This document shows, piece after piece, positions 5,446 through 23,399 of a stretch of 61,171 nucleotides of DNA. The DNA is taken from the NCBI GenBank assembly GCA_019313915.1, contig JAFDAJ010000025.1:1-61171 (forward strand). The letters are read 5' to 3'. Position 1 is the stretch's first letter, and each line of letters opens with the position of its first letter. The stretch is from Deltaproteobacteria bacterium (GTDB lineage Bacteria; Myxococcota_A; Polyangia; Polyangiales; Houyiibacteriaceae). The notes below the pieces were generated by a model. The model had not been told where the DNA came from and did no database searches. It was given only the letters and a program-made list of their open reading frames with translations. The translations under genes were made by a program, and so were the position numbers.

Positions 5446-7156
5446 GCGCCGGCGCCCTACCCGGTGGATGACCGGTGCCGCCGCCCTCGTCGCGGCTGCC
5501 CTCCTCCTCGGTTGGGTGATCGCTAACTTCCCAAGAGCGCCCATCGGCCCCCGTTACGTCGGCGCCGGGCACCAGACCCCTCGATCTGGCGGAACATTCA
5601 TCTTCGCGGCTGGGAGCAACATCCACACGCTCGACCCGCACTTCGCCTACGACACTCTGTCGACCGCGGCGTGCAGACTGCTTTACGACGGACTGCTCGA
5701 CTACGACTACGACGGAAACATGATTCCTGGTCTCGCGGCCGAGCTCCCCAAGATGTCCGACGGAGGCAGGAGTTTTCGCTTCACCCTGCGCAACGGCATC
5801 AAGTTCCACAACGGTCGTGAAATCACGGCTGAAGACATTTCGTGGTCGTTGCACCGCTTGCTGTCCGAGCGAATCGGATCGCCTGGCTATCCGTTTTTCA
5901 AATCGATCCAAGGGGCGCCGGCGTACCACAGAGGAGAAGCGGATCGCGTCGAGGGCATCGTCGTCCTCGATGAAAAGACAATCGAGTTCCATCTCGACGA
6001 AGCCGACCAAACATTTCTCAACGCGCTGGCGATGCCATTCTCGTACCCACTCGCCAAGGAGCACGTCGAGAAGCTCGAGCAAGCCGAGGGGCGCGACGCG
6101 GTCGGGCGCCACCCAGTCGGATCAGGGCCGTTTACTTTCTCACGCTGGGAGCGCGGCGTGCAAGTCGAGTTCGAGCGCTTTGAAGAGTACTGGGCACCGC
6201 AGGCACGCCCCGACCGAATGATCTTCCTCGAGAACATCTCGTCCGACGTCGCGAGCGCACGCTTTCGCAACGGCGACCTAGACGTCGTCTACCGCCCCAG
6301 TAAAGTAACCCGGTTGTTCCTGAGAGCGTCCGAGGCCTGGGCTCCCTATCGGGCCGAGTCACCGAGCGCCTCGGTGTTCGCGCTGGGCCTCAACTGCGAG
6401 CTACCCCCGTTTGACGACGTGCACGTCCGCCGCGCCGTGGCCTTTGCGCTCGACCGCTCAAAGCTAGAGCGGCTCGACCCGGGTCAGGTGATCGCCGCGA
6501 CTCAGATTCTGCCCCCAATGCTCGCGCCGCACGATCCCGAGCTGCCGACGCGACAGGGGTTCGACCTCGAGCGGGCCAAGGAAGAAATGCGCTTGGCCGG
6601 CTTCCCGGACGGGCTGATCGAGCCGGTCACTCTGTGGGTGAGAGGCGAAGGTGAGGTGCGTGCCGCGCAGCTGTTCCAACAGGACCTCAAGGCGATCGGC
6701 ATCGAGATCGAGCTCAAGATGGTCTCCTTCGCAACCTACCTGAAGGAGACCGGCCGGCCGCGAGTCGCCCAAGCTGCGTTCACGGGTTGGCACCAGGACT
6801 TCCCCGATCCGTCCAACTTCATGGACATCTTGTTCCACAGCCGCTCGATCCATCCCGAGAACTCCGAAAACCGCTCGTTCTACCGAAACCCGAAGCTCGA
6901 CGCGATCCTCGACCGCGCGCGCCCGGAGATCGACCGAGAGGCCCGGCTCGCGCTCTACGCGCAGGCCAATGCAATCCTGGCGGACGAGGCGCCCTGGGCG
7001 TTCCTCTACTACCCGATCGACATGTTTGCCTGGCAGCCATACGTGAAGGGCTTTCGCCCGCACCCCGTCTGGCTGAACGAATACCGCAACGTGTGGCTCG
7101 ATCTCCCCAGGGAGCGCGTCAGTCAGTCGATCTACGAACAGGAGACGGGCCCATGA
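5423..7156 (+). CDS. Peptide ABC transporter substrate-binding protein (SBP family 5)
   Basis: TLDP, LYDGLL, FTLRNGIKFHNG, PVGSGPF, PFDDVHVRRAV; start at ATG 5423 or 5468. Confidence 0.92.
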   Translation: MRSTPRTERRRPTRWMTGAAALVAAALLLGWVIANFPRAPIGPRYVGAGHQTPRSGGTFIFAAGSNIHTLDPHFAYDTLSTAACRLLYDGLLDYDYDGNMIPGLAAELPKMSDGGRSFRFTLRNGIKFHNGREITAEDISWSLHRLLSERIGSPGYPFFKSIQGAPAYHRGEADRVEGIVVLDEKTIEFHLDEADQTFLNALAMPFSYPLAKEHVEKLEQAEGRDAVGRHPVGSGPFTFSRWERGVQVEFERFEEYWAPQARPDRMIFLENISSDVASARFRNGDLDVVYRPSKVTRLFLRASEAWAPYRAESPSASVFALGLNCELPPFDDVHVRRAVAFALDRSKLERLDPGQVIAATQILPPMLAPHDPELPTRQGFDLERAKEEMRLAGFPDGLIEPVTLWVRGEGEVRAAQLFQQDLKAIGIEIELKMVSFATYLKETGRPRVAQAAFTGWHQDFPDPSNFMDILFHSRSIHPENSENRSFYRNPKLDAILDRARPEIDREARLALYAQANAILADEAPWAFLYYPIDMFAWQPYVKGFRPHPVWLNEYRNVWLDLPRERVSQSIYEQETGP

Positions 7157-8154
7157 TTCGTTTCATCTTGCTACGCGCCATGTGGGGCGTGCTGGTCATC
7201 ATGTCGGTCGTGACACTGGTCTTCTTCCTGATCTTCGTTGCGGGCGATCCCGCGGTAACCGTCCTCGGTCCACAAGCCAGAGCCGAGCAGATCGCGGACT
7301 TCAAGGCCAAGAAGGGATTGGACCAGCCCGTGCCCGCGCAGTTCCTGAGCTACCTCGGAGTCATGCCATGTGTCCGCAAAGATTCGCCAAAGTACGAGCG
7401 CGACGACGGCTCCCGCGGATTCTGCGGCATCCTTCAAGGGGACTTGGGCGAGTCGTACTCACACCACGAATCGGTGGCCGCCGTAATCGGGCACCGTCTG
7501 CCCCGCACACTGCTCCTCGCCTCGTTGGCGGTCCTTTTCGAGCTGATCATCGGGCTCAGCGCCGGGGTCATCGCTGCACTGCGTCGCAACCGTTGGTCTG
7601 ATACGTTGATCATGTTCGCCACCTTCGTCGGCATCAGCTTGCCCACGTACGTCACCGGCCCGATCTCGCTGCTGCTCTTTGCGTTTCTATTGGGCTGGTT
7701 TCCGTTTGGCGGCTACGGAGTCGACCCGCTCGATCACCTCTACCACGCGCTCTTGCCCTCGTTGATTCTGGCAGTCGCCGGAGCCGCGACGTATGCGCGC
7801 GTCATGCGCGGTGAGCTCATCGAGACGCTGCGACATGACCACGTCAGAACCGCGAAAGCCAAGGGCATGCCGATGAGTAGAGTCGTCATCAAGCACGCCA
7901 TTCGCAACGCCCTGCTTCCCATCGTCACCCTGATCGGATTGAGCCTGCCGTTTCTCGTCGGCGGCGCGATCATCACCGAAAAGATCTTCGCGTGGCCGGG
8001 CCTTGGGCTTCTGACGATTGAATCGATTGAATCGCTCGACGCCCCCGTGATCATGGCAGTCGTGCTGATGTTCGGCGTTGCCGTTCAAATGGGCAACCTG
8101 TTGGCGGACATCGCGGTCGCGGCGCTCGACCCGAGGATTCGGCTCGAGGACTAG
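7153..8154 (+). CDS. Peptide ABC transporter permease, DppB/OppB type
   Basis: MIRFILLR start with ATGA overlap; GLDQP, GDLGES, TAKAKG, HAIRNALLP, FAWPGLG, LDPRIR. Confidence 0.93.
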   Translation: MIRFILLRAMWGVLVIMSVVTLVFFLIFVAGDPAVTVLGPQARAEQIADFKAKKGLDQPVPAQFLSYLGVMPCVRKDSPKYERDDGSRGFCGILQGDLGESYSHHESVAAVIGHRLPRTLLLASLAVLFELIIGLSAGVIAALRRNRWSDTLIMFATFVGISLPTYVTGPISLLLFAFLLGWFPFGGYGVDPLDHLYHALLPSLILAVAGAATYARVMRGELIETLRHDHVRTAKAKGMPMSRVVIKHAIRNALLPIVTLIGLSLPFLVGGAIITEKIFAWPGLGLLTIESIESLDAPVIMAVVLMFGVAVQMGNLLADIAVAALDPRIRLED

Positions 8155-8936
8155 CCCTTTGGCTTGGGCCTCACCGGAAACACCCGGCGCTCTCCGTCAC
8201 TACGCGGCGCGAGCACCTGGAGCGCGTCGATCTTGATCTTCTTTCGGCGCGCGTCCGGGAGCTTGATGATGCAAACACCATCGCCCGTCAGCCCTTCGAT
8301 CTTGCAGAGTCCGAACTTGACGTGCTCGATCCAATCGCCCTTTTCTGGCTTGTACTCCAGGCTTGCAGCGGGCTCTGCGCGGGCGGAGAGCTCCGCTGCC
8401 ATCGCCCAGGTTGCCTCCGTGGGGACTCCCTCAGGAGCCGCGCCGGGAGCTGGCAGCACCTGCGGACCAGCAGCCTGTGCCTCGAGGTTGGCCCAGAGCT
8501 GGAGCCCCGTGGCATCGTCGTGGTCTCGCCGCAGCTCGAGCTCGTCGAAGCAGTCGATGCGAAACTCGAGCGCGAACACCGAACCGTCGACCACGTGGCC
8601 TCCATAGGTGACGTCACGTTCCCCTTCGCGCAGGGAAACCGTTGCGTGGAGATGCCAGAACGGCTCACCGTCACGCTCGGAGAGGTTGCCCTGCATCGAC
8701 AGAAGCTCACATCGCTCGAAACGATGCGCACCTTCGTAGCGTCGATCGGATTGATTGTATTCGGTGAGCTCGATCCATTCGAAGGCGCCGATTGCACTCA
8801 CCCAAGCGGTTCGAAGGCCGTGCTCGTCGACGAGATTGCGAAATGCTTCCTGCAAACCGCTCCCGTGAAAGACTCGACCCACGATGTGCCGCGACGCGCT
8901 CGCCTCCACCGACGACGTTCCCTTCGGCACAGTCAC
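8151..8936 (-). CDS. DUF296/PPC-domain protein with extra C-terminal Tudor-like domain
   Basis: SAIGA, ELLSMQGNL, HLH and GGH motifs of DUF296; C-terminal KGDWIEHVKFGLCKI. Confidence 0.75.
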   Translation of the reverse strand: MTVPKGTSSVEASASRHIVGRVFHGSGLQEAFRNLVDEHGLRTAWVSAIGAFEWIELTEYNQSDRRYEGAHRFERCELLSMQGNLSERDGEPFWHLHATVSLREGERDVTYGGHVVDGSVFALEFRIDCFDELELRRDHDDATGLQLWANLEAQAAGPQVLPAPGAAPEGVPTEATWAMAAELSARAEPAASLEYKPEKGDWIEHVKFGLCKIEGLTGDGVCIIKLPDARRKKIKIDALQVLAPRSDGERRVFPVRPKPKG

Positions 8937-9577
8937 GGCGTCGCTTGTGTCAGACGCTCTTCCTTCGCGTCGACCGCATCGACGAAGAGCTTGAAGTACT
9001 CACCGCCGCTCAACAAAGCCAAGGCTAGGCTAAAATAGAGAAGCACTAGCCCAACCTGCGCAAAATCGAACTCGGTTTGGTAGAACCCGAAGTAGATCGT
9101 GTACCGCTGATGCACGATGAGCATTAGTATCGCGACCATCTGCAAGGCGGTCTTGTCCTTGCCGGTCCGCATCGCGGCCATCACGACCCCTTCGCTCATC
9201 GCGATCGTCCGAAGCGCCGTGACGGCGAACTCTCGCGCGAGCATGATGATCACCGCGACGACACCGAGGAACGGCATGCGGCCGAGGTACGCGAGGAAGA
9301 TGAGCGTCGCCATCACGAGGAGCTTGTCCGCTAGTGGGTCGAGGAACTTTCCCAGCACGCTGATCTGGCCCCACTTGCGAGCGAGATAGCCATCTATGAG
9401 GTCGGTGAGCGCGGTCCCGATGTAGAGCATTGCTGCCCAGAAGTTCGCCCTAGGCGTGCCATCCCAGAGGAGCCACAGCACTCCAGGGATCAGCGCGATC
9501 CGGAGCATGGTCAACAAGTTGGGCAGATTGAGCGCGTCGTCCCGGATCGACGTTCGCTTGGGCGGGGCCTCTTCCAT
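8933..9577 (-). CDS. pgsA: CDP-diacylglycerol--glycerol-3-phosphate 3-phosphatidyltransferase
   Basis: NLPNLLTMLRI; TDLIDGYLARKWGQISVLGKFLDPLADK. Confidence 0.93.
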   Translation of the reverse strand: MEEAPPKRTSIRDDALNLPNLLTMLRIALIPGVLWLLWDGTPRANFWAAMLYIGTALTDLIDGYLARKWGQISVLGKFLDPLADKLLVMATLIFLAYLGRMPFLGVVAVIIMLAREFAVTALRTIAMSEGVVMAAMRTGKDKTALQMVAILMLIVHQRYTIYFGFYQTEFDFAQVGLVLLYFSLALALLSGGEYFKLFVDAVDAKEERLTQATP

Positions 9578-9632
9578 GGGGCGAGGTGTACCCCAGGTTG
9601 CCCCTCCCGTCTGCTACCGAAGCGACTCCGCC

Positions 9633-9863
9633 CTACGGGTGAATTTCAGGGGCGCCATCCATCTCGCGGATCTTGCGGCGAAGCCACCAGATGAAGCCGC
9701 CTATCATCATGAGAGGCACGATCGTCAAGAAGACCGTTGTGTCGACGAACGCCTGCCGGTTCTCCTCGAGCGGCGATGCGCACGACGGACACGCATAGGC
9801 CAAGTCGGCTGCCCAGGTTACAGCGACCACGGCGGCTGCGAGAGCCACTCGAGCCAAACGCAT
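9633..9863 (-). CDS. Small exported/membrane protein with CPSC motif (76 aa), last gene of the oxidase operon
   Basis: ATG overlaps the upstream stop (TGATG); signal peptide AYA|CPSC, one C-terminal TM helix. Confidence 0.75.
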   Translation of the reverse strand: MRLARVALAAAVVAVTWAADLAYACPSCASPLEENRQAFVDTTVFLTIVPLMMIGGFIWWLRRKIREMDGAPEIHP

Positions 9864-10453
9864 CACAGGTAGACCTGCCAGTAGAGAATGGGCCAAACAC
9901 CCACGACGAAGTACCAGAAGACCTGCGCCGGCCAGAACGTGAAGCGATCCAGGTCGTCGTGCAGCAGCTTGCGGTATGTGTAGAGCAGGATGATGAACCC
10001 GGCAACGACGTGAAGTGCGTGGGTTCCCACTAGGAGATAGAAGAAGCCACCCAACTGCCCTGAAGTAACCGTCAGACCCTCGCCGATGAGCGCGACCCAC
10101 TCAGCGCCCTGAAACACGACGAAGAAGCCACCGAGGACGATCGAAATCAACAAGAGCCGCTTGGTCTTGGCGTCCCCACGCTTGAAAGCCCGATTGGCAA
10201 AGTACAGCGCGACGCCGCTCGCGAGCAGAGCCGCCGTATTGAGGGCTGTCTCCTCGACCGGCAGACGCGGTTGTCCGGGCGGAGGCCAGCCTCCAATGGC
10301 GTTGCTCTTGCCGATGACGAAGGCGCTGATCAGGCCGGAGAAGAACATGATCTCCGTGGCCACGAAGATCAGCATACCGAGCACACCGTTCGGGAGGACT
10401 GGCTCGCGCCTGGCGGGCACGCTGTAAGGGAGACCTAGTGCATCATCAGGCAT
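9863..10453 (-). CDS. Heme-copper oxidase subunit III family protein (second copy)
   Basis: GMLIFVATEIMFFSGL, NTAALLASG, GTHALHV, FWYFV. Confidence 0.9.
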   Translation of the reverse strand: MPDDALGLPYSVPARREPVLPNGVLGMLIFVATEIMFFSGLISAFVIGKSNAIGGWPPPGQPRLPVEETALNTAALLASGVALYFANRAFKRGDAKTKRLLLISIVLGGFFVVFQGAEWVALIGEGLTVTSGQLGGFFYLLVGTHALHVVAGFIILLYTYRKLLHDDLDRFTFWPAQVFWYFVVGVWPILYWQVYL

Positions 10454-10471
10454 GGGCTATTCCTCCTTTCC

Positions 10472-10903
10472 TCAGTGCGCGGCGTCGTCGTGTCCCTCGG
10501 CGTGCTCGCCGTGTGGGTCCTTGCCCTCGGCCTCGAGCGCTCGCTCGACCTCGGCTGCGGCTGCGACGTTTTCCCAGTTCTGGCCCTTGTGCTCCATCAC
10601 ATCTGGGGCGGTACCTGCGAAAAACAGCAACATCAGCATCAACATCGTCGCCAGAAGATACGAGATGTACTTCTTTTCGACGTTGAGGTGCATGAAGTTC
10701 GCTGCAACCAGATACGCCTTGACGAGCGCTATGCCAAACGCGGTCATCAAGGTGATCATCCAGGCCTCGAGGAAGCCAAATGCCACGTGAGGCGCGATGA
10801 TCGGGCCTAGGACACTGAGAATGAGCAGCACGAGTAGAATCGCCCAGATCTTCACGTAGAAAGCCTGACCGTGGTCGCCTGCGTGGTCTTGATGTTCAGC
10901 CAT
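10472..10903 (-). CDS. Cytochrome c oxidase subunit IV family protein
   Basis: YVKIWAILLVL, ALVKAYLVAANFMHL. Confidence 0.88.
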   Translation of the reverse strand: MAEHQDHAGDHGQAFYVKIWAILLVLLILSVLGPIIAPHVAFGFLEAWMITLMTAFGIALVKAYLVAANFMHLNVEKKYISYLLATMLMLMLLFFAGTAPDVMEHKGQNWENVAAAAEVERALEAEGKDPHGEHAEGHDDAAH

Positions 10904-10915
10904 GATCGTCAGCCC

Positions 10916-11494
10916 TCACTTGGCGATGTAGAGCAGGGGGAAGAGGAAAATCCAGATGATGTCGACGAAGTGCCAGTAGATCCCGATCAACTCGACCCGG
11001 TGGAGCTCTTTGCCCTTCCGCGCGTCGTTGGCGATGATCAGCATGATGATGCAACCCGCAATGACGTGGAGCCCATGGAGCCCCGCAGCGGTGTAGTAGA
11101 AGTGCCAAAACCCGTTGGCGGTGATGGTGTAACCGTGCTGAATCTCGCCGGTCCATTCGACCGCCTTGACGCAGATGAAGACCAGGCCGCCGGCGCACGT
11201 GCCCAGCAGCCACTTGGCGGCCTTCTTGCCATCTCCTTGCTCGGCCGCGTGGTGCGCGAGCACTGCAAACAGCGATGAGGTCAGCAGCACGAACGTGTTG
11301 GTGGCGCCGAACCAGGTGTTGGTGTGCGAGGCGTACTCGGCCCACTCGGGGTGCCCTAGCCGGTGCATGACGTAGGAAGCGAGCAATCCGCCGAAAATCA
11401 CGATTTCCGAACCGATTACCCACCAAACGGCGAGCTTGCCGGTCGGGATGCCTGTGGCGCTTCTGGTAGTTGCTATGGGTCTAGTCGTGCTCAT
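10916..11494 (-). CDS. coxC: Cytochrome c oxidase subunit III
   Basis: From ATG 11494 (MSTTRP); WWVIGSEIVIFGGL, NTFVLLTSS, GLHGLHV, YWHFVDIIWIFLFPLLY. Confidence 0.92.
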   Translation of the reverse strand: MSTTRPIATTRSATGIPTGKLAVWWVIGSEIVIFGGLLASYVMHRLGHPEWAEYASHTNTWFGATNTFVLLTSSLFAVLAHHAAEQGDGKKAAKWLLGTCAGGLVFICVKAVEWTGEIQHGYTITANGFWHFYYTAAGLHGLHVIAGCIIMLIIANDARKGKELHRVELIGIYWHFVDIIWIFLFPLLYIAK

Positions 11495-11504
11495 CGGTGC
11501 CTCG

Positions 11505-13226
11505 TCATTCGGCGGGGGCTGTGTCCGGTGGGACGTCTTGCGGCCAGTAGTCCTCTTCGCGACCTGGCACGCTGTACTCGTAAGGACCTCGGTAGCAGTT
11601 GGGAAGCTCGGCCCAGTTGCCATGAGGCGGCGGCGAGGTCGTGGTCCATTCGAGGGTGTTCGCCTTCCACGGGTTCTTCCCGGCAGGCTTACCCTTGAAC
11701 ATACTGTAAAAGAAGTTGAACAGGAACACGGCCTGGAAGGCAAGCATCACCAAGAGGGCCGTCGTGGCGAACACGCGGAGGCCCTGCATGTCCGCTAGGT
11801 CTGGGAAGTTCTGATAGTTGTAGATTCGTCGGTGCTGACCCGCTGTGCCCAGGATGAACAGCGGAATGAAGATGCTGTTGAAGGCAGCGATCGTGCCCCA
11901 GAAGTGAATCTTCCCGAGGGTCTCGTTCATCATCCGTCCGAACATCTTCGGGAACCAATACGTGATCCCCGCCAAGAAGCCGATAATGGCGATTGGGAAG
12001 AACGTGTAGTGGAAGTGTGCGAGCACGAAGTACGTGTCGTGGAAATAGATGTCCGAGCCGCTCGCGCCGAGGAAGATGCCCGTGATGCCGCCAATCATGA
12101 ACTCAGCAATGAACGCCAGCGCCCAGAGCATCGGCGTGGTGAGCCGAATCGAGCCGCCATAGAGCGTCGCGATGTACAAGAAGATCATCTCAGCAATGGG
12201 AATCGAGATGATCAGCGTGGTGATCGTAAAGACGTTCGCCATACGCGGGTCGATGCCGGCGACGAACTGGTGGTGAGCCCACACGAAGAAGCTGATTATG
12301 GCCGTGGCGAATACCGTGTAGAGGATCAGCTTGTAGTTGAAGAGCTTCTTGCGCGAGAAGGTGCAGATGATCTCGGCCACGATGCCAATCGCAGGCAGGA
12401 ACACGACGTAGACCTCCGGGTGCCCGAAGAACCAGAAAAGGTGCTGCCACAGAATCGGGTCACCGCCGCGTCCGGGATCGAAATAGCCAGTGCCGACGAC
12501 CTGGTCCATGAAGAGCATCACGGCACCCGCAATGAGCGGACCGACGGACGCCATGAAGAGGACGCTGGCGACGACGATCATCCACAGCACCATCGGGATG
12601 TCGTACATCTTCATGCCGGGCGCGCGCGCGTTCATCAGCGTGGTGATGAAATTGATGCCACCGAGCAGGAAGGCCACGAACTCGAGCGCAACGGCGACGA
12701 GCCAAAGCGTCGAACCAAGCGGCGTGAGGCTGTACTCCGCGCTCGAGGAGAGAGGCGGATACGCGGTCCATGCGCCGCCAAAGCCGCCCCCGGGAACGAA
12801 CAGCGAGCCGATGAGCACGAGCGCACTGACCAGGAATATCTGATACGACAGCCGGTTGATGCGCGGGAACACCATGTCGTCAGCGCCTATCATCAACGGG
12901 ATCAGGTAGTTGCCGAACGCCGCGATCAACATGGGCATCGCCACCCAGAAGATCATGATCGTGCCGTGATTGGTGACCAGGGCGTTGTATTCACCCTGCG
13001 ACACGAGGCCATAACCCGGCACGCTTTGGCCCGGGAACGCCAGCTGCATTCGAAACGCATACGACATGTAGCCGCCGATCAGGGCCATCACGATGCCTGT
13101 GAACATGTACTGCATCGCGATCATCTTGTGATCGGTGGAGAAGATGTACTTGCTCCAGAAGCCCTGCTCGTGGTGTGCGTCGTGCGCGTGTGCGCCGTGT
13201 GTCTCTGCTGTGCCTGCTTCAGCCAT
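11505..13226 (-). CDS. coxA: Cytochrome c oxidase subunit I, A1-type motif, atypical K-channel
   Basis: STDHK, HGTIMIF, WFFGHPEVY, WAHH, HDTYFVLAHFHY, HRR; start ATG 13226. Confidence 0.97.
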   Translation of the reverse strand: MAEAGTAETHGAHAHDAHHEQGFWSKYIFSTDHKMIAMQYMFTGIVMALIGGYMSYAFRMQLAFPGQSVPGYGLVSQGEYNALVTNHGTIMIFWVAMPMLIAAFGNYLIPLMIGADDMVFPRINRLSYQIFLVSALVLIGSLFVPGGGFGGAWTAYPPLSSSAEYSLTPLGSTLWLVAVALEFVAFLLGGINFITTLMNARAPGMKMYDIPMVLWMIVVASVLFMASVGPLIAGAVMLFMDQVVGTGYFDPGRGGDPILWQHLFWFFGHPEVYVVFLPAIGIVAEIICTFSRKKLFNYKLILYTVFATAIISFFVWAHHQFVAGIDPRMANVFTITTLIISIPIAEMIFLYIATLYGGSIRLTTPMLWALAFIAEFMIGGITGIFLGASGSDIYFHDTYFVLAHFHYTFFPIAIIGFLAGITYWFPKMFGRMMNETLGKIHFWGTIAAFNSIFIPLFILGTAGQHRRIYNYQNFPDLADMQGLRVFATTALLVMLAFQAVFLFNFFYSMFKGKPAGKNPWKANTLEWTTTSPPPHGNWAELPNCYRGPYEYSVPGREEDYWPQDVPPDTAPAE

Positions 13227-13237
13227 GCCTATTCCGT

Positions 13238-13978
13238 TCAGCGGGAAGCGAGCTTGCCCGTGCTGCTCTGCGACATCCAAGCCGCGTGTTCTTCAGGGGT
13301 TTCGACGACGATGCGCGCGCCCATGATGCCGTGCCCAATCCCGCACATCTCAGCACACTGAATGTCGTACTCGCCGGCCCTCGTGGGCTTGAACCAACCC
13401 TTCATGATACGGCCCGGAATCGCGTCCTGCTTCAGACGGAACACCGGAACCGAGAAGTCGTGCAGGACGTCCTTGGAAAGGAGCTCGTAGTGGTAGGTCG
13501 TGCCCTCTTGGACGTGGAGTTCGTTGAACGTGATGATGTCGTCATCCGTGTCGAGCTCGTTGTCGGGACCGGGGTGAACGAAGTTCCATGCCCACTGCTG
13601 TGAGATGATGCGAATCGTGCTGTCCGCCTCGGGAAGACGTTGCTTGATGTTGTACCAAACCATGATCGCCATGAAGACGATGACCAAATCGCAGACGATG
13701 ATCGCCGCGTGCGGATAGGTAATCCATCGCTTGAGATTCTTCTCTTCACCCGTGACGTACTTCGCCTTCTTTCCCTTCTTCTCGCGGAAGCGGAAGATTA
13801 GGAAGAAAAACGCGGCATAGGCGAGAAGGGCCCAAAAGCCAACCATGACAGCGATGAGCGCAATGAGCGCATCGATGTCGCCGGCAAACGAAGAGCCCAC
13901 CGGCAAGGCTGAACCGACCAGGTAGTCACCCAGCGGCTCGAAGATTCCCTTGATGAAGTCGTAGATTCCTTGGAGCAT
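13238..13978 (-). CDS. coxB: Cytochrome c oxidase subunit II (CuA), no fused cytochrome c
   Basis: QWAW, DVLHDF, CAEMCGIGHGIM; two TM helices. Confidence 0.95.
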   Translation of the reverse strand: MLQGIYDFIKGIFEPLGDYLVGSALPVGSSFAGDIDALIALIAVMVGFWALLAYAAFFFLIFRFREKKGKKAKYVTGEEKNLKRWITYPHAAIIVCDLVIVFMAIMVWYNIKQRLPEADSTIRIISQQWAWNFVHPGPDNELDTDDDIITFNELHVQEGTTYHYELLSKDVLHDFSVPVFRLKQDAIPGRIMKGWFKPTRAGEYDIQCAEMCGIGHGIMGARIVVETPEEHAAWMSQSSTGKLASR

Positions 13979-13994
13979 TCGACCCTCTACCCAG

Positions 13995-14105
13995 TCAGTT
14001 CAGAATGAAAGCAAAGACGACACCGGCATAGACGAGAACGCTAATCATGGTCCACTTCCACCAAAAAAAGGCCTCGCTGTCGGGATCCCGTGTTTTACCA
14101 GCCAT
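13995..14105 (-). CDS. Small single-TM protein (36 aa) MAGKTRDPDSEAFFWWKWTMISVLVYAGVVFAFILN
   Basis: Manually translated; fills the gap in the operon; GAGGG RBS upstream. Confidence 0.7.
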   Translation of the reverse strand: MAGKTRDPDSEAFFWWKWTMISVLVYAGVVFAFILN

Positions 14106-14123
14106 CTCTCAAACCCTCGCAAA

Positions 14124-14780
14124 CTATTCAGATAACGTGCCAATGTAGGCGATGACGTCTTTCATCGCCTGTTCGGTGGGCAACGTCATGGAGAACGGTC
14201 GCATCTTCGCCCCCGTGATGTCGTCCGCATGTGTGCCTCGCACGCCGGCCTTGAAGTTCTGGAGCTGCGTGAGCAGGTACCAGTCGCTCGCGCCGGCCAA
14301 TGGCGGACCAAACTCATCGATGTTCCCGCGCGCGTCGGCTCCGTGGCATTGCACGCAGGTAGCAAAGTAGATCTTGCCCGTCTGGGGATTGCCGCCCTCG
14401 AGAGTGGGCGCTGGGTTCGTGCGCGGTAGACTGGCTACGTAGGCCGCAATGATGTCGACTTTCTCGTCCGTGTCCATCGTCATGGCCATCGGCAGCATTC
14501 GCTTGCCGGCCATGTCGTCCAGGTGCCAGCCGCGCTGGCTCTTCTTGAACTTACGGAGCTGTGCCTTGATGTACCAACGCTCGAGGCCACCAATCGCAGG
14601 CGCAGCGAGGTCTTGATTGCCTTCGCCGTTCTCGCCGTGACACTGCACGCAGCCGTCATAGAGGTCCACGCTATACTTCAGGCTGGCTTTGTCCGGGCTC
14701 GGGTCCTCGCACGCCGTCAGCAGAAACGACAGTGTCAACACGAGGCCCATCACCGCACCGGTGCGTACGTCGGTCATCAT
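14124..14780 (-). CDS. Diheme cytochrome c4-like lipoprotein
   Basis: Lipobox LTAC; two CVQCH motifs, internal repeat (YIKAQL/YLLTQL), Met ligands; AGGAG RBS before ATG 14780. Confidence 0.9.
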   Translation of the reverse strand: MMTDVRTGAVMGLVLTLSFLLTACEDPSPDKASLKYSVDLYDGCVQCHGENGEGNQDLAAPAIGGLERWYIKAQLRKFKKSQRGWHLDDMAGKRMLPMAMTMDTDEKVDIIAAYVASLPRTNPAPTLEGGNPQTGKIYFATCVQCHGADARGNIDEFGPPLAGASDWYLLTQLQNFKAGVRGTHADDITGAKMRPFSMTLPTEQAMKDVIAYIGTLSE

Positions 14781-14782
14781 CG

Positions 14783-15424
14783 TCACTCTCCTAGCGACTT
14801 AAGGTAGGCAATCAGTGCTTCTACCTCCTGCTCGGGGAAATTGTAAGGGGGCATCGTCTTGCCGTAGCCCTGAACGACTTGGTCCCAAGAGTTCTTGATC
14901 GAGTCGGCGAGGTACGCTTCGTCAGCGACGACCGTCTCGCCGCTGACCAAGAGGCGGTCCGTACCAAAGATACCCTTCCAGTTCGGACATGGCTGCTGCT
15001 TCTCTCCGTCGACCGAGTGACAGGCCATGCACCCCTTGCTGTTGCTGAGCTTCTGTCCCCAGCAAGCCATCGGGTCCGCAGCGCCTGTGCACTCGGGCGG
15101 CATCGTGACCTCACCAGGCGCCACCGGTGCCGCACCCTTGAACGACCAACCGTTCACCGCGGATTCGTCGTCGGAAGGCCGTGGGGCGAGAGCTGGAAAG
15201 TCCGCGCGCGGCTTTGCCGTGTACTCCGCCATCGCCTGCCCGATCGGAATCGTGCCGCCTTCGAGCGCCGCTTCTTGCTCCCTCAAAATGATATCGCGCT
15301 CGTCGTCGGGAGACGGCGCTCTTGCCGAGTCTGCTTGGCCGCAGCCCACCCCGAAAGCCATCAAGACCGTGAAGGCCACCAGGACTCGGAGGGGTGCAAA
15401 TCGTGTGTTCTGCTTCGTACTCAT
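14783..15424 (-). CDS. ActG-like lipoprotein fused to a monoheme cytochrome c
   Basis: Lipobox GVGC; IPIGQAM segment; CMACH..VVADEAYLADSI..VVQGY..MPPY. Confidence 0.8.
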   Translation of the reverse strand: MSTKQNTRFAPLRVLVAFTVLMAFGVGCGQADSARAPSPDDERDIILREQEAALEGGTIPIGQAMAEYTAKPRADFPALAPRPSDDESAVNGWSFKGAAPVAPGEVTMPPECTGAADPMACWGQKLSNSKGCMACHSVDGEKQQPCPNWKGIFGTDRLLVSGETVVADEAYLADSIKNSWDQVVQGYGKTMPPYNFPEQEVEALIAYLKSLGE

Positions 15425-15434
15425 CCGTGCACGC

Positions 15435-16814
15435 TCAGTATATTTGGTGGAGGTGAAGGCTCCGCTGAAGCCGTGGATCGCCGACGGGCAACAACGGGAC
15501 CCTCCCGAGCTGCCAAAAGACATACGCAAAGAAGACGCCGCCAACGAACAGCAACGCGCCTACGTCCGCAAGCTGAACCTGGAAGCCTCCCGCCTGCGGC
15601 ATGATGAACCAGTAGATGTCCACGATGTGCATGAAGATTACCCAGAAGCACATCACCTGGAGCCAACGAAGCGCCCGTTTCTGTACGCGCGAAATCAGCA
15701 GGAGGAAGGGCGCGACGAAGTGGCCGAAGACCAGCAGGTAAGAGACGAACATCCAGCCCCCCTCCCAGCGCTTGTGGAACCAAGTGGCCTCTTCTGGAAT
15801 GCCCGCGTACCAAATCAGCATCCACTGCGAGAACTGGACGTAGCTCCAGAAGCAGACGAAGCCAAACATGAGCCTGCTGAGATCGTGGAAGTGCTCGATG
15901 TTGATGGCGTCGCCGACCAGGCCACGCTTGTAGAGGCTCAGGCCGATGAGAATCGTCAGGGCCAGGATCGCTACGGCTGATCCTGCAAAGATGATCACAC
16001 CGAAGATCGTCGAGAACCACGCCGCCTCGAGCGACATCAGCCAATCGAACGCGGCAAAGGTGAGCGAGAGCGCAAAGAGGATCAGCGCCGGCGCTGCCAA
16101 TCTTTGCATCCGCAACGTATGCTTGGGGTCGCGATCGTCGTCCTGGCGCCTGGACCAGCCGAAGTACGCAAGGGCGATCAGGCACCAGATGATGAGGTAG
16201 CCGATGCCGCGAGCGGCCCAACCATTGGTGTTCAGGTATCCGGTCTTCTCGCTGATAATCTGGTGGTGGAGCGCAACTTCCTGCGACGTATGGGCATGCT
16301 CTTCTTCGTGGGCTGTCTCGTCGGCGCCGGCGTCGCTGCCGTGGTCTTGCGCATACGCGACGCTTGCGCCCATCTCCAACGTGCCGTGCTCGTCGGACGG
16401 AGAGTCTGACTCAGACGCGGAGTCCCCGTGATCGTCGCCGTGCTCGCCGTGGGCAGCAGCGCTCTGCCACTCGTCGTAGATGTTGATCTTACCGAGCGCC
16501 ACGCCCCCGATGAACGGAAGCGCCAACAGAGCGACGACTGGCGCACCGGACATGACAACCTCGACGATGCGTCGCGACGACACGCCCCAGTACGAAGCTG
16601 TCAGGAACTGAACCAGCACCAGGAAGAGTCCGCCGAGCATGAAGGTAGCCGTCGTGAATAGGCCGAACAGGTACGCGTAGCCCAGCCTGTCCGCGTCGGC
16701 GGTCAAGATCGCAACCAGGCCGCCGGCAATGGCAAGCACGAGAGGCGCGACCCAGGCGCGCGACCAGAAGGCGTCGTTTCCGACCCGATAATCCTTTTTG
16801 TTCGCTTCCGTCAC
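15435..16814 (-). CDS. actF: Alternative complex III subunit ActF
   Basis: GTG overlaps actE stop; AFDWLMSL..WFSTIFG, HFHDLSRLMFGF, FSQWMLIWYAGIPEE; His-rich insert. Confidence 0.9.
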   Translation of the reverse strand: MTEANKKDYRVGNDAFWSRAWVAPLVLAIAGGLVAILTADADRLGYAYLFGLFTTATFMLGGLFLVLVQFLTASYWGVSSRRIVEVVMSGAPVVALLALPFIGGVALGKINIYDEWQSAAAHGEHGDDHGDSASESDSPSDEHGTLEMGASVAYAQDHGSDAGADETAHEEEHAHTSQEVALHHQIISEKTGYLNTNGWAARGIGYLIIWCLIALAYFGWSRRQDDDRDPKHTLRMQRLAAPALILFALSLTFAAFDWLMSLEAAWFSTIFGVIIFAGSAVAILALTILIGLSLYKRGLVGDAINIEHFHDLSRLMFGFVCFWSYVQFSQWMLIWYAGIPEEATWFHKRWEGGWMFVSYLLVFGHFVAPFLLLISRVQKRALRWLQVMCFWVIFMHIVDIYWFIMPQAGGFQVQLADVGALLFVGGVFFAYVFWQLGRVPLLPVGDPRLQRSLHLHQIY

Positions 16815-17431
16815 TGGGGTTGCTCCGTGTTCCCGGCCACGCTTGCTGGTGCTTGACTCAGCTGCAGCGCGCGGACGTACTGAACGATGGCCCATCGGTC
16901 GTCGACAGGGAGGTTGTGGGCGTACGACGGCATGTTGCGCACGCCGTTGGTAATGGTCGCGAAAATCTGACCGTCGGGAACGTGGCGCAAGCGATCGTCG
17001 TGAAAGGTCGGAGCGACCATACCGGGTGCTCCCAACTGTGCCGCGCGACGCGACACCATGCCCTTGCCATCGCCAGAATAGGAATGGCAGGGAGCACAGA
17101 AAATGTCGTAACGATCCCGCCCGCGCTCGAGGAAGGCCCCGTTGCCGCCGTGCGCCGCGATGAGCCTAGGTGGCACTTCCAACACGTACCCTTCGTCTGC
17201 TGCGCGCCCAGTGGCCCACGTTAGCGAACGTTCCATCTCCCTCGAAACCGTTCCCTCGACCCCCGGCCGCATCGAGCGCTGGTCCGCAAAGAACGGCTGC
17301 CGCTCCTGCGTGTCGTACCGGGGCTGGTTGTACATGTTGCGGATGCCGACGACCGGCGGCTCGCCACTCTCGGCTCCGATGCATCCGGTGGCCAACGTCG
17401 CAAAAGCCAGTGTGATGAGAAGAGCCCGCAT
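16811..17431 (-). CDS. actE: Alternative complex III monoheme cytochrome c lipoprotein ActE
   Basis: Lipobox ATGC; MYNQPRY, FFADQRSMR, YDIFCAPCH, DRWAIVQYVRALQ. Confidence 0.92.
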   Translation of the reverse strand: MRALLITLAFATLATGCIGAESGEPPVVGIRNMYNQPRYDTQERQPFFADQRSMRPGVEGTVSREMERSLTWATGRAADEGYVLEVPPRLIAAHGGNGAFLERGRDRYDIFCAPCHSYSGDGKGMVSRRAAQLGAPGMVAPTFHDDRLRHVPDGQIFATITNGVRNMPSYAHNLPVDDRWAIVQYVRALQLSQAPASVAGNTEQPQ

Positions 17432-18009
17432 CACCGCACCTCCTCCTCGATGAGCTCGAGAGAGATCGGGTCGGTCGCCTCCAGAAGCGCCTTGGTGCCG
17501 TCGAGGTTGAACTTCTGGTCGCCTACTTCGATCGAGATGAAGAACCTGTCGTCCGATGCCGCTTCGAATCGCTCTGACTCGAAGATCGGGTGGTTGTGCC
17601 GTGGCAACTTGATGATAGCCAGCAAGCCAAAGAAGGTCGAAAGGCCGCACAGGAGAATGCCGAGCTCGAATATGATGGGCACCATCGAAGGGAACGCTCC
17701 GGGTGGCTTGCCACCAACGACGAGCGGATAGCCCGCGCCGATGTTCAGCAAGTTGAACGAGAACGCGTTCGTGTAGTTCATCATGAACACCGCGGTCGCG
17801 AGACCGATCATGCCGAAGATGAACGAGATGTAGCCGATTCGAGTCGGCTTGAGCCCCATTGCTTCGTCCATGCCGTGCATGGCGTACGGGGTGTGGCAGT
17901 CCCATTTCTGGTAGCCCGCGTCGCGCACCCTCATCGCGGCCCGCGCGATTGCATTCGGCGTACCGTATTCGGCCAGGTAAAGAGCAGGCTTTTTTGTTTC
18001 GTTAGCCAT
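17431..18009 (-). CDS. actD: Alternative complex III subunit ActD (DUF3341)
   Basis: DAGYQKWDCHTPYAMHGMDEAMG, YPLVVGGKP, PIIFELGIL, DDRFFISI. Confidence 0.92.
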   Translation of the reverse strand: MANETKKPALYLAEYGTPNAIARAAMRVRDAGYQKWDCHTPYAMHGMDEAMGLKPTRIGYISFIFGMIGLATAVFMMNYTNAFSFNLLNIGAGYPLVVGGKPPGAFPSMVPIIFELGILLCGLSTFFGLLAIIKLPRHNHPIFESERFEAASDDRFFISIEVGDQKFNLDGTKALLEATDPISLELIEEEVR

Positions 18010-18017
18010 GATTCGCC

Positions 18018-19489
<1,472 letters not shown>

Positions 19490-19495
19490 TGGTTC

Positions 19496-22400
19496 TTACC
19501 CATTTCCCTTCAGCTTGGGGTTTGGGTTTCGGATGCGCGCAAGGAACGAGGTTCGGGGTCGTGTGCCGATTTCGGCAAGGAGCTTGTAGTTGCGGTTGAC
19601 TGCCAACCACCTGGCCACCGTGCTCTTCGGGTCATTGAGGTCGCCAAACGCGATCGCCCCCGTCGGGCAGGCTTGCTGGCACGCGCTCTTGATATCGCCG
19701 TCCTTGAGCTTGCGGCCTTCCCGCTTGACGGCGATCTTCCCTTCTTCGATGCGCTGTACGCAGTACGTGCACTTCTCCATCACGCCGCGCATGCGGACGG
19801 TGACATTGGGGTTGAACTGAAGCTTCCTGGACTCGGGGAACTCTTCGAACCAGCCGAACTCGTCGTCCAAGTGGCCGTGCCAGTCGAGGTAGTTGTAGCG
19901 GCGAACCTTGTACGGGCAGTTGTTCGCGCAGTAACGAGTGCCGACACACCGGTTGTAGGCCATGTCGTTGAGGCCCTCGGGTGTGTGTGTCGTCGCGTTG
20001 ACCGGGCACACGTTCTCACACGGCGCTTCCTCGCACTGCTGGCACGTGACCGGCTGCACTGCGACATCAGGATTGTTTGGGTCGTCCCCGACGAAGTAGC
20101 GGTCGATGCGAAGCCAGTGCATCTCGCGACCGCGCTCCACCTCGAACTTGCCGACCGCGGGGATGTTGTTCTCCGACTGGCATGCAATGACACAAGCGTT
20201 ACAGCCTGTGCACCCGTTGAGGTCGATCGCCATGCCCCACTTGTAGCCCTCGCTGTAGTCCTGCTGCTTCCACAGCGGAGGCGTGCTCACGGGGTCGACC
20301 GACCGGTAGGAAGCGAAGTCGGGCTCCTTCTTGTACTCGTCGAGCGTCGCGTCGATGGCGATCGGGCGACCTTCCATGCGATCGTGCGTCTGCGTCTGAA
20401 CCAGGGTGTACGCCTCGCCAAGCACCTCGATGGTCACGCCGTCCGTGAAGTCCATGCCATCGCTGGTGCGAAGCGGATTGACGTCGAAGCCCTTGCCATT
20501 GCCGTAGCGTCCCGCGGCGGTGCGCCCCCAACCGAGCGTCAGCGTCACGCAGTAGTCGGCGTGTCCGGGGACGATCCACGCCGGGACTTCGACCTTGGCG
20601 TCGCCCTTGGTGAGGCGAAGCATTTGGCCCTTCTTCACGCCGAGCGCCTCGCTGGTTGCAGGCGAGATGAGTGCCGCATTGTCCCAAACCAGCTTCGTCA
20701 TCGGGCTAGGCAGCTCGAGCGCCCACAGGTTGTTCGCATGCGCGCCGTCCCATAGGGCCGGATCCGGCTCGAAGCTCACCTCGAGGTTGTCCTTGCTAAC
20801 CGTCTGTCGAGTCCGGAGGAGGAGGAGCGTTTCGACAAGCTTGGCGAAACTCATCGGCGGCTTGCTCTGCGAGGGGTTCAGCAGAACACCGGTGTGAAGG
20901 GCGCGTCGCCAGATGGCATCAGCGTTCAGATCCGCGGGCGAAACTCCAAAGTCGAGCAGCGCCTTCGTATCCTTGCTGATCTGGGAAGCTTGGGTCTCCC
21001 GAACGATGTCATGGCCGCTGGTAGTCTTGTCGCCAGCCAGAGCTGCTAGGAACTCTATCTCGCTTCGGCCCCCATAGAGAGGCGCGATCAGCGGCTGCTG
21101 GATCGCGACCGAGCCGTCCAGTGACTGTTGATCTCCCCAGGTCTCGAACTCGTGCGTGAGTGGCGCGTGCCAAGAGCAGAGCTCCGAGGTCTCGTTGCGA
21201 TGGGTCGAAAGATGGACCGATGTGAGTCCTTCTCGGCCGAGGAGGTCGGCAAACTTCACGTCCGCAGGCGCGTCGTACGCGGGGTTGCCGCCCAGCATGA
21301 CGAGCGACGAGATCGCCTCGGCATCTTTCGCCAACTCCGTGATGCCCGCACGACTGGTAGAGTCGTCGGTATCGATGGCGGAGCCGAAGAACGTGGTCGC
21401 GCCGAAGTTGCCAAGCGCGCCGTTGATGACGGTCGCGAGCGCGTGGACGTAGGCGGGCTGACCTGCGCCGGCAATCACCATCGAGCGGCCCGCGTTTTGC
21501 AGCAGGTCGTCGGCGAGCGGGGTTAGCCATGTCAGATCCAACCCCTCCAAATCCGCGCTACCACTGCCTCTTTGGACGATGTCGGCGACCTGTTTGAGGC
21601 TGTCGACTCCGCGTGCCGCAAGAACGAACATCAATACCCGCGCGAACCAGCCAATATCAGCCTGAGGCATGCGCAGCCGGTGGTCGGCCATGGTTCCCGT
21701 CACCGTGAGATTCGACTCGACAACGTAGAGTCGGCTCATGGGCGCATCTGGGGACACTATGCCACGCGTCTGGGCGAATCGGCGCCCCGCGGCCACAGCG
21801 CCCGGCTCGGAGCCCAGGAAATCCGCCCCCAGTGAGAGAGTCACCATCGATCTCGAATGATCGTAGAACGGAACGCTCGGCACTCCCTGCATCAGCATCC
21901 GAGCGCCTTCGCGCGCGTTGTCATCGTTGATCGGGCTGTACGTGTGGAAGCGCGCCTTGGGGAACTTCTCGACCACCTTGCCGCGCATCCGCCGGAATGA
22001 TGGGCTGTTCGAAATCGGCGCAAGGAAGCGAAGACCAGCGCCCTCGTCCCCCTTGTGCTTTGTGACCAGCGCCTTCAGCGCTTTGTCGAAATCCGCGTCG
22101 GTGACGTTCGCAAGTGCGTTGCCGCGACGCTGCGCGGGCGATTGAGAACGGTCCGGGTCGTACAGATCCCAGATGTAGGCCTGCGCCCGAACGTCTGTAC
22201 CGCCAAGGCTCCTCGTGTGCTGCTCGTTGCCCTCGACCTTGGTCGGGCGACCGTCGTGATTCGTCACCACGACTCCGAGTGAATCGCGACCACGCGAAGT
22301 CACCGTCGCGAAGTGCGAGGGGACGCCGGGAACCAAGTACTCCGGGGCCTTGCTGTAAGGCAGGATCTCATTTTCGGGACGGCGAACACAGCCCTGAAGG

Positions 22401-22612
22401 CCTGCGGCCAGCGCAGCTATCGATGAGCCCTGCACGAACGAACGACGTGAGACGAGCGCTTTCGGGCTCAAGAGGTCGGTGAGGAAGCCGCCTGGCTGCT
22501 CTTCCTCTGCGAGCTGCTGAAGCTCTCGCGGATCGGCATTCTTGTCCTCGAGCATCCGCCACATCGACCGACCTTTACCCGGACTCAGCTCATATGGTTT
22601 TCTGCGGGTCAT
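19496..22612 (-). CDS. actB: Alternative complex III subunit ActB (molybdopterin-fold plus Fe-S domains)
   Basis: Tat motif SRRSFVQ; GRPTKVEGN; [44 protein letters not shown]. Confidence 0.95.
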
Positions 22613-23247
22613 CGGTGGCACCCCGAACAATGCTCAGGTGGATTGAGGGCGGCGGCGATTTCGGCGCGCTGAGCGACCCAAGCCTCGTCGGCTTCCCACT
22701 TCATATTGGTGACCTCACTCTTTGGTCGAATGTGTGGCTCCGGATTGCGGTGACACTCCAAGCACCACTGCATCGCGAGCGGCGCGACGACCCCAACGAC
22801 CTCCATCTGGTCGACACGGCCGTGGCAAGAGGCGCAGCCCACACCTGCTCTGACATGGGCGCTGTGATTGAAAAACGCGTGGTCCGGAAGCTGGTGGACG
22901 CGAACCCACGCAAGCGACTCGTCGGTCTCCCAGCTCTCCCGTACCGGCGCCAGCTTCTCCGACTCGGCGTGCACGACCGCGTGGCAGCCCATGCATGTCT
23001 GCGTCGGCGGCACCATCGCTTCGTGCGAGCGCTCTACCTGGGAGTGGCAATAGCGACAGTCCATGCCGAGCTCGCCGGCATGCAAACGGTGGCTGTAGTC
23101 AACGGGCTGCTTCGGCGTGTAGCCAACCTGGAGGTTGGGCGGGGTGAAGTAGACCCAAAACAAAAGGAACACGCCTCCTCCGAGTCCGCCGGCCACGACG
23201 GCCAGCGCGAGGGGCAAGGAGTTCAACTCGCGGGGGAAAATCTGCAT
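22609..23247 (-). CDS. actA: Alternative complex III pentaheme cytochrome ActA
   Basis: Five CxxCH motifs (CRYCH, CMGCH, CASCH, CLECH, CSGCH); QPVDYSHRLHAG; one N-terminal TM. Confidence 0.95.
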   Translation of the reverse strand: MQIFPRELNSLPLALAVVAGGLGGGVFLLFWVYFTPPNLQVGYTPKQPVDYSHRLHAGELGMDCRYCHSQVERSHEAMVPPTQTCMGCHAVVHAESEKLAPVRESWETDESLAWVRVHQLPDHAFFNHSAHVRAGVGCASCHGRVDQMEVVGVVAPLAMQWCLECHRNPEPHIRPKSEVTNMKWEADEAWVAQRAEIAAALNPPEHCSGCHR

Positions 23248-23399
23248 GCTGCGTTTTCTCTTGAGTCCTCTAAACGACCGGCCGCCATTTAGGCGAAGCA
23301 CGGGGGTCGGACAAGCCAGTTCGTCATTTTTTGACGAACAACATCCAGGCGGCGTTCGCGCAGCAGCACTGCACTCGACTTCTTCTTCTCCCTGCGGGC

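Follow-up and report, generated by a model that had tools for sequence, protein, structure and literature searches.

In current models of A-type oxidases, the K-pathway lysine is central to proton uptake during reduction of the catalytic site. The window analysed here (the whole 61,171-nt stretch of contig JAFDAJ010000025.1, assembly GCA_019313915.1, from a Deltaproteobacteria bacterium; all coordinates are window positions) encodes a natural, strongly conserved A-family oxidase that has neither this lysine nor any other canonical K-pathway residue except the tyrosine. The enzyme is common, occurring in at least 597 species genomes and in roughly three in ten of the sampled Myxococcota, and it is often the only aa3-type oxidase of its genome. 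Five buried ionisable residues are conserved in its clade: E200, E364 and E393 in subunit I (CoxI) and H90 and D97 in subunit II (CoxII). With moderate confidence, and from sequence comparison, we read the enzyme as an O2-reducing, haem A-type cytochrome c oxidase that would act behind alternative complex III (ACIII) and take its catalytic-site protons through a relocated, Lys-free pathway at the interface of subunits I and II. The genes and residues on which the argument turns are listed below (Rs, Rhodobacter sphaeroides numbering).

11505–13280, minus strand: CoxI, haem-copper oxidase subunit I of the A family with the HPEVY motif (A1-like); PF00115, E = 1e-131; the true start is likely the ATG at 13226
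13238–13978, minus strand: CoxII, CuA subunit without a cytochrome c domain; PF00116, and 1M56_B with E = 1.5e-27
12186–12197, minus strand: CoxI helix VIII, I362-A363-E364-M365 in place of Rs T359-G360-I361-K362; Lys lost, Glu new
12372–12377, minus strand: CoxI helix VI, A302-E303 in place of Rs S299-H300, from alignment and codons
12102–12104, minus strand: CoxI helix IX, E393 (Rs L390), inside model helix 382–405
12669–12683, minus strand: CoxI helix IV, E200-F201-V202-A203-F204 in place of Rs S197-G198-A199-S200-S201; new Glu in the upper D-channel
13688–13735, minus strand: CoxII helix 2, with L82 (Rs E101 column), H90 (Rs I109) and D97 (Rs G116), from alignment and codons

CoxI aligns to R. 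sphaeroides subunit I (1M56_A; phmmer, E = 2e-124) without a gap across helices IV, VI and VIII, and the K-pathway columns read S299 to A302, T359 to I362, K362 to M365 and S365 to L368. These four replacements, together with a new Glu one residue before the Lys position, had been proposed in an earlier note on this DNA and are upheld by the alignment, which restores neither Lys nor Thr at the K-channel positions: M365 and I362 stay. Among the K-channel residues as numbered in Paracoccus denitrificans (Pd; K354, T351, S291, Y280 and the subunit II entry Glu), only the Tyr remains, and every canonical position is hydrophobic (A302, I362, M365 and L368 in subunit I, L82 in subunit II). Further changes are H300 to E303 in helix VI and G360 to A363 and I361 to E364 in helix VIII. 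The substituted codons were checked in the DNA and, because the same states recur in homologues, the substitutions are not the product of chance or sequencing error. E303 was considered as a special feature and rejected, as Glu or Asp at this position is also common in Lys-bearing oxidases.

The metal ligands are kept, as the earlier note had claimed (H105, H287, H336, H337, H422 and H424, equivalent to Rs H102, H284, H333, H334, H419 and H421), and these six His are invariant in the subunit I alignment. The cross-link Tyr, likewise claimed, is Y291 in HPEVY, the cross-link itself being predicted from the motif; Rs R481/R482 and the Mg-site HD pair are also present. The AlphaFold2 (AF2) model of CoxI (predicted local distance difference test, pLDDT, 89.6) matches the aa3 oxidases of R. 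sphaeroides and P. denitrificans in Foldseek with template-modelling (TM) scores of 0.81–0.93 and a root-mean-square deviation of about 2 Å. The models of the two subunits put E200, E364 and E393 of CoxI and H90 and D97 of CoxII within transmembrane helices.

In subunit II, the column of the K-channel entry residue E101 holds L82 in the alignment to 1M56_B, so the absence of this Glu that the earlier note described is borne out. Across 77 clade sequences (78 less one canonical CoxII), position 82 is variable (L in 26, E in 21, Q in 15 and H in 8), H90 is present in 76 and D97 in all 77. A helical-wheel reading of the conservation table places H90 and D97 on the side of helix 2 where conservation is high, across from the variable one; in the AF2 model (pLDDT 92.1) this helix comprises residues 80–113. 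The CuA site is complete, with the Cys-x-Glu-x-Cys-Gly-x-x-His-x-x-Met motif and the upstream His, and C208, C212, H216 and M219 are invariant. The same model has a confident extra N-terminal helix ahead of helix 1 (residues 2–20; 13880–13978, minus strand), and an invariant Asp, D36, stands at the start of helix 1.

The D-channel, which the earlier note called intact, is so at its entrance and at E286; its upper part, where Rs S197, S200 and S201 read E, A and F, is not. The residues kept are E289, D135, N124, N142, N210, S145 and Y58 (Rs E286, D132, N121, N139, N207, S142 and Y33). Set against the A1 D-channel residues listed by Sousa et al. (PMC3084760), namely Pd D124, N199, N113, N131, Y35, S134, S193 and E278, CoxI has seven of the eight; the remaining one, Pd S193 (Rs S201), is replaced by F204, and Rs 197 has become a Glu. 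The upper D-channel is predicted from these replacements to be remodelled and to hold a second Glu.

A scan of one genome per species returned at least 597 relatives, of which 80 loci, each at least 69% identical, were kept for analysis. They come from Myxococcota, Gemmatimonadota, Acidobacteriota, Verrucomicrobiota, SAR324, Bdellovibrionota and other phyla. Among the sampled genomes of the phylum of the source organism, about 62 of 201 carry a match of at least 69% identity (rows counted by hand). In the plasmid collection, 1063 records matched, all at less than 60% identity, so none is a clade member; the annotated CoxN-like cluster of Ralstonia is among them. The 120 best database homologues are 77–97% identical to CoxI, and position 364 is Glu in 119 of 121 sequences (query included) and Gln in the other 2. 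High identity across phyla indicates that the clade oxidase is under strong purifying selection. The residue signature was tabulated for 200 clade sequences (from two sources, not de-duplicated) against 62 A1 and 15 A2 representatives that bear the Lys.

E200 (Rs 197): 200 of 200 clade sequences
F201, A203 and F204: 98–100% of the clade
A302 (Rs 299): 94% of the clade
I362 (Rs 359): 94% of the clade
E364 (Rs 361): 195 of 200 clade sequences
M365 (Rs 362): about 90% of the clade, with L in 8%
E393 (Rs 390): 177 of 200 clade sequences, the others having T, A, S or D
T322 and T326 (helix VII): 96% each
S359 (helix VIII): 100% of the clade
Q338 (adjoins the CuB His pair): 100% of the clade
H483 (adjoins the two haem-propionate Arg): 96% of the clade

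No new buried basic partner appears in the list of clade-specific CoxI residues. Strict coupling of E364 and E393 was considered and rejected: each is lost singly in some members, though none of the 200 sequences lacks both.

The genome from which the window comes has one A-type oxidase (the CoxI described here), one cbb3 oxidase and one NorCB, together with a haem A synthase (CtaA/Cox15, 345.9 bits). Within the genus, 12 of 16 genomes carry the clade oxidase (one judged by score only), and in 9 of the 12 it is the sole A-family match. The data sets listed for 9863–14786 are of DNA, with no RNA data set among them. The norB of the nitric oxide reductase (cNOR; contig C333, 1369–2788) is split by a frame change and one TGA within the match, with norC upstream and a MoxR/NorQ-like gene downstream; the split could reflect an assembly error or a broken gene.

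CoxI belongs within the A family. Its best matches in the PDB and NCBIfam are all A-type, although its score against TIGR02891 (583.6 bits) is below the NCBI cut-off of 670.75 for canonical CtaD, and the tree (FastTree, LG+gamma, midpoint rooted, with no B- or C-family outgroup) nests it beside Lys-bearing A-family clades. The crown clade has a Shimodaira–Hasegawa (SH)-like support of 0.92 and joins two K-less sequences, P0124 and L181, with support of 1.0; both have the E200/A/F replacements and lack E364. Together they are sister to Lys-bearing CoxN-like oxidases (support 1.0), and the nearest Lys-bearing representatives are about 46% identical to CoxI. The distinct subfamily suggested in the earlier note thus emerges as a well-separated clade. 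From the topology, loss of the Lys is derived and E200 arrived with it; E364, on this topology, would have come later than E200 or been lost in P0124 and L181. One further locus (L275, contig C244 of genome G023, 5733–9671) encodes the nearest K-less sister type, 54% identical, which has Phe-Ser-Ile-Thr at Rs 359–362, the Lys being replaced by the Thr that B-type oxidases also have there; its CoxII keeps the Asp and not the His.

Absence of the Lys is not confined to this clade. The earlier note held the K-channel residues to be near-invariant in the A family; among its divergent members this does not hold, as 52 of the 138 scorable representatives nearest to CoxI lack the Lys, in several separate parts of the tree, and such loss is also in print. 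A second large and independent K-less clade, from Verrucomicrobiota, Acidobacteriota and Planctomycetota (loci L085–L131, for example L131 of Rubritalea marina DSM 17716), has wholly hydrophobic K positions, no acid on helix VIII and mostly Ala before HPEVY. Its CoxII helix 2 carries a mid-membrane Glu at most one residue from D97 in 8 of 8 loci, compared with 0 of 3 Lys-bearing relatives, and in Acidobacteriota loci the oxidase lies directly behind ACIII genes. A third, from metagenome-assembled genomes (MAGs) of Acidimicrobiia and Chloroflexota (loci L276–L284, L288, L301 and L315), carries a conserved Glu at the fourth residue ahead of the helix VIII Pro; its CoxII has neither the entry Glu nor a mid-membrane acid; another K-less group has Asp or Glu at Rs 360. 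In a clade among representatives P0154–P0260, Gln (sometimes His) replaces the K-pathway Lys, and helix IV has one Glu at Rs 198 and another, in place of a D-channel Asn, at Rs 207. Glu at Rs 390 (helix IX) also occurs in P0147, an oxidase that bears the Lys; the Thr, Asn or Gln seen there in several clades suggests that the position faces a polar cavity. A genome scan with P0262, which is K-less and has Glu at Rs 197, turned up no named acidophile and no relative above 46% identity.

Haem a3 and the K-channel lie in the pore formed by helices VII–X of subunit I, whose helices VIII and IX are in contact with subunit II. In canonical enzymes, the K-pathway supplies protons during catalytic-site reduction, leading from the subunit II Glu by way of the helix VI Ser to the Lys (PMC8361435). 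In the clade described here, protons for the reduction of haem a3-CuB would instead travel a relocated, Lys-free path between subunits I and II, formed by H90 and D97 on subunit II helix 2, E364 (helix VIII) and E393 (helix IX) of subunit I, and the new Thr and Ser residues T322 and T326 (helix VII) and S359 (helix VIII). The D-pathway would keep its entrance and E289, with its upper part rebuilt around the second Glu, E200. We infer that the new side chains point towards each other and pass protons along. Rough depths, counted from the helix ends of the AF2 models at 1.5 Å per residue, put H90 about 7 Å, E364 about 13 Å, E393 about 16 Å and D97 about 18 Å from the N side; by the same count, the lost S365, K362 and T359 span about 7–16 Å, the same depth range as the new residues (E200 apart).

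A relocated pathway is favoured because the features of an O2 reductase are all kept (ligands, Tyr, R481/R482, Mg-site HD and CuA), because haem A synthase is present and CoxI is the only A-family oxidase of its genome, because other K-less clades also carry private buried carboxylates, and because the K-channel analogues of B- and C-family oxidases work without a Lys (PMC3084760). The chances of such a pathway at the interface seem to us about even. A more specific version, in which D97 and H90 of subunit II would relay protons across the interface to E364 and E393 of subunit I, the canonical Lys pathway being sealed, and in which private buried carboxylates within or next to the former K-region would have evolved repeatedly, whenever family A enzymes lost the Lys, is put forward tentatively, at somewhat less than even chances.

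Several observations weigh against this proposal. Natural members without E364 (5 of 200, including the cultured Puniceicoccaceae strain K14, locus L083, which has Ile there) or without E393 (23 of 200) exist, so each residue is individually dispensable in nature. The nearest K-less sisters both lack E364, and P0124 lacks E393 as well; the sister CoxII has D97 and not H90. An acid on CoxII helix 2 is not general, since one K-less clade has none. Finally, the invariant E200 sits in the D-channel and fits equally well an oxidase fed by that channel alone.

In such an oxidase, all protons, for the substrate and for pumping alike, would arrive through the D-channel with E200 as a second relay Glu, the K-region would be closed, and E364, E393, H90 and D97 would have structural, assembly or regulatory roles. 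We consider this explanation, the main rival, unlikely. Function with the D-channel alone was proposed by Degli Esposti et al. for other K-less oxidases (bioRxiv 10.1101/2020.03.01.968255). The explanation draws on the fact that E200 is the sole invariant new ionisable residue of subunit I, that it predates E364 in the tree (P0124 and L181 have E200 and no E364) and that natural variants lack E364. It also draws on the helix IV window, where an acidic residue is found in 20 of the 52 K-less representatives compared with 1 of the 86 that bear the Lys; these acids come from about four lineages and so represent few independent events. However, a D-channel-only enzyme leaves unexplained four more conserved ionisable residues, which by our depth counts lie at the level of the K-pathway, in helices beside the old channel, and F201 and F204, which replace Gly and Ser of the upper D-channel, look like a narrowing. 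In canonical enzymes, moreover, work on K362M indicates that D-channel protons are no substitute for the K-pathway in the reductive phase. Between the two possibilities raised in the earlier note, use of the D-pathway only or a rebuilt Glu-based pathway, the evidence leans to the second, widened to include E393 and the subunit II pair H90 and D97.

The notion that CoxI is not a working, proton-pumping O2 reductase at all, being instead a decaying gene, a nitric oxide (NO) reductase or a non-pumping scavenger, seems to us improbable. The R. sphaeroides K362M mutation nearly abolishes turnover, and the cbb3 oxidase of the genome could carry aerobic respiration. However, the oxidase is very highly conserved over hundreds of genomes, as is its complete five-gene module; haem A synthase is retained; and the genome has a separate NorCB. 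A nitric oxide reductase would be marked by loss of the cross-link Tyr or by altered CuB/FeB ligands, whereas CoxI keeps the Tyr and the three CuB His and, with all its ligands in place, is unlike the NO reductase families described in PMC11214002. Least probable of all, and in our view very improbable, is a role of the buried Glu, Asp and His residues in binding or conducting a cation, for example Na+, for coupling or regulation. Membrane-embedded carboxylate clusters without basic partners are typical of cation sites, and the source organism is represented in metagenomes of marine sediment, seeps and vents. However, the clade loci, by their records, stem from marine, groundwater and soil-type samples and show no tie to alkaline or high-salt settings; the enzyme retains the E289 and the D-channel entrance of a proton pump; we know of no A-family Na+ pump; and nothing in the sequence data speaks for the Na+ connection that the earlier note had raised.

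The enzyme resembles the aa3 oxidases of R. sphaeroides and P. denitrificans (1M56 and 1AR1) in its 12-helix fold, at 37–39% identity, and shares with them the metal ligands, the HPEVY Tyr, the D-channel entrance, E286 and the CuA site. It differs in lacking S299, T359, K362, S365 and E101 of subunit II, in reading E/A/F at S197/S200/S201, and in having the new E364, E393, H90(II) and D97(II); in addition, subunit III is here represented by two short paralogues, and the dihaem cytochrome c is a separate gene. The sister CoxN-like oxidases (coxMNOP-type; the ctaD of the Ralstonia solanacearum megaplasmid and ACIII-linked Bacteroidota enzymes), about 45% identical, share the C-terminal extension and have two subunit III-like genes and a subunit IV gene, and in Bacteroidota loci ACIII genes lie directly upstream. 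Unlike the clade, they retain S299, K362, the subunit II Glu and T359 (or S in its place), and neither helix IV nor CoxII helix 2 contains an acid; their genes follow the order II-I-III-III'-IV, and Ralstonia carries its cytochrome c as a fusion with subunit II. Of the features of the CoxMNOP type, compared with the Ralstonia cluster only, our locus has the two COX3-like genes, whereas the K-channel is absent and CoxII is without cytochrome c. Like the B-family ba3 oxidase of Thermus thermophilus, the clade would have a proton pathway in the K-region without a Lys, working there and inferred here. However, ba3 re-uses helix VI and VIII positions with Thr, Ser and Tyr and lacks a D-channel, as described in PMC3084760, whereas our clade has hydrophobic residues there, its new polar residues lie elsewhere and partly in subunit II, and the D-channel entrance is kept.

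A K-less A-type oxidase as such is already known. The preprint of Degli Esposti et al. (bioRxiv 10.1101/2020.03.01.968255) describes acidophilic Fe(II) oxidisers, and organisms related to them, whose family A oxidases lack the K-channel Lys and the subunit II Glu; it also describes clusters with a c4-type cytochrome and duplicated COX3 from Gemmatimonadetes and soil MAGs; repeated K-channel losses in archaeal family A oxidases are described in PMC8239418. Those K-less oxidases are like ours in having a hydrophobic residue for the Lys, in loss of the subunit II entry Glu and in a largely kept D-channel, and the c4-type cytochrome and duplicated COX3 clusters resemble the module found here. They differ in being presented in the preprint as A2 type and as the deepest branch of family A, whereas our clade, with its E286, is A1-like and nests next to CoxN-like oxidases that bear the Lys. 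The Acidimicrobiia/Chloroflexota clade described above, which is probably the group that the preprint calls deep-branching, stands elsewhere in the tree and has a different Glu. The preprint text makes no mention of E197, E361, E390 or the subunit II His and Asp, although the clade may be listed in its supplements (Figs S10 and S11a, Table S1); in the literature searched, the Degli Esposti papers were the only ones found to treat K-less family A oxidases, and the carboxylate signature was not found. What appears to be new is how large the clade is, that it is A1-like, that Lys-bearing CoxN-like oxidases are its sister group and that it has a conserved five-residue signature.

If the relay across the subunit interface operates, the positive charge of the K-pathway Lys would not be essential to the A-family mechanism, and E200 beside E286 would amount to a distinct D-channel design. 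Because the candidate replacement residues are defined and can be mutated, both the need for the Lys charge and the sufficiency of one channel are directly testable. Annotation rules that define 'type A' by its K-channel misdescribe a large group of environmental aerobes.

CoxI and CoxII are part of a single long respiratory gene row on the minus strand that runs from ACIII through a monohaem and a dihaem cytochrome c to CoxII and CoxI and ends in CoxIV flanked on either side by a short subunit III-like gene.

22609–23301, minus strand: ActA, multihaem cytochrome c, by family match
19496–22630, minus strand: ActB, molybdopterin-like and 4Fe-4S, by family match
18018–19610, minus strand: ActC, NrfD, by family match
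17431–18021, minus strand: ActD, PF11821
within 16811–17905, minus strand: ActE, assigned from its position and its conservation across related loci
15435–16895, minus strand: ActF, assigned from its position and its conservation across related loci; a family match was looked for and none was found
15435–23301, minus strand: the whole of ACIII (ActA–ActF)
14783–15544, minus strand: monohaem cytochrome c, PF00034; the true start is probably later than that of the open reading frame (ORF)
14124–14786, minus strand: dihaem c4-like cytochrome c with a lipoprotein-type signal; PF00034 in two stretches, lipobox by eye
10916–11743, minus strand: Cox3a, short subunit III-like protein, PF00510 and NF050119; the true start is probably near ORF residue 85
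10472–10903, minus strand: CoxIV, PF03626 and TIGR02229
9863–10453, minus strand: Cox3b, second short subunit III-like protein, PF00510

In most of the 80 loci the module has the order dihaem cytochrome c, CoxII, CoxI, Cox3, CoxIV and Cox3'. CoxII is upstream of CoxI in 79 loci, and Cox3a and CoxIV are each downstream in 79; Cox3b follows CoxIV in 73, and the dihaem cytochrome c, which is likely the electron donor to CuA, precedes CoxII in 69. The whole module is present in 64 loci, with several loci ending at contig edges. ACIII genes lie directly upstream in only six, all from close relatives, and ActA/B are nearby in three more. The monohaem cytochrome c occurs only in the 7 closest loci (L007, L008, L010–L012, L084). 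Just downstream of Cox3b, a small ORF (9633–9860, minus strand) for which no Pfam match was found encodes a signal-like N terminus, a Cys-Pro-Ser-Cys motif and one C-terminal membrane helix, and may be an oxidase assembly or copper-handling factor.

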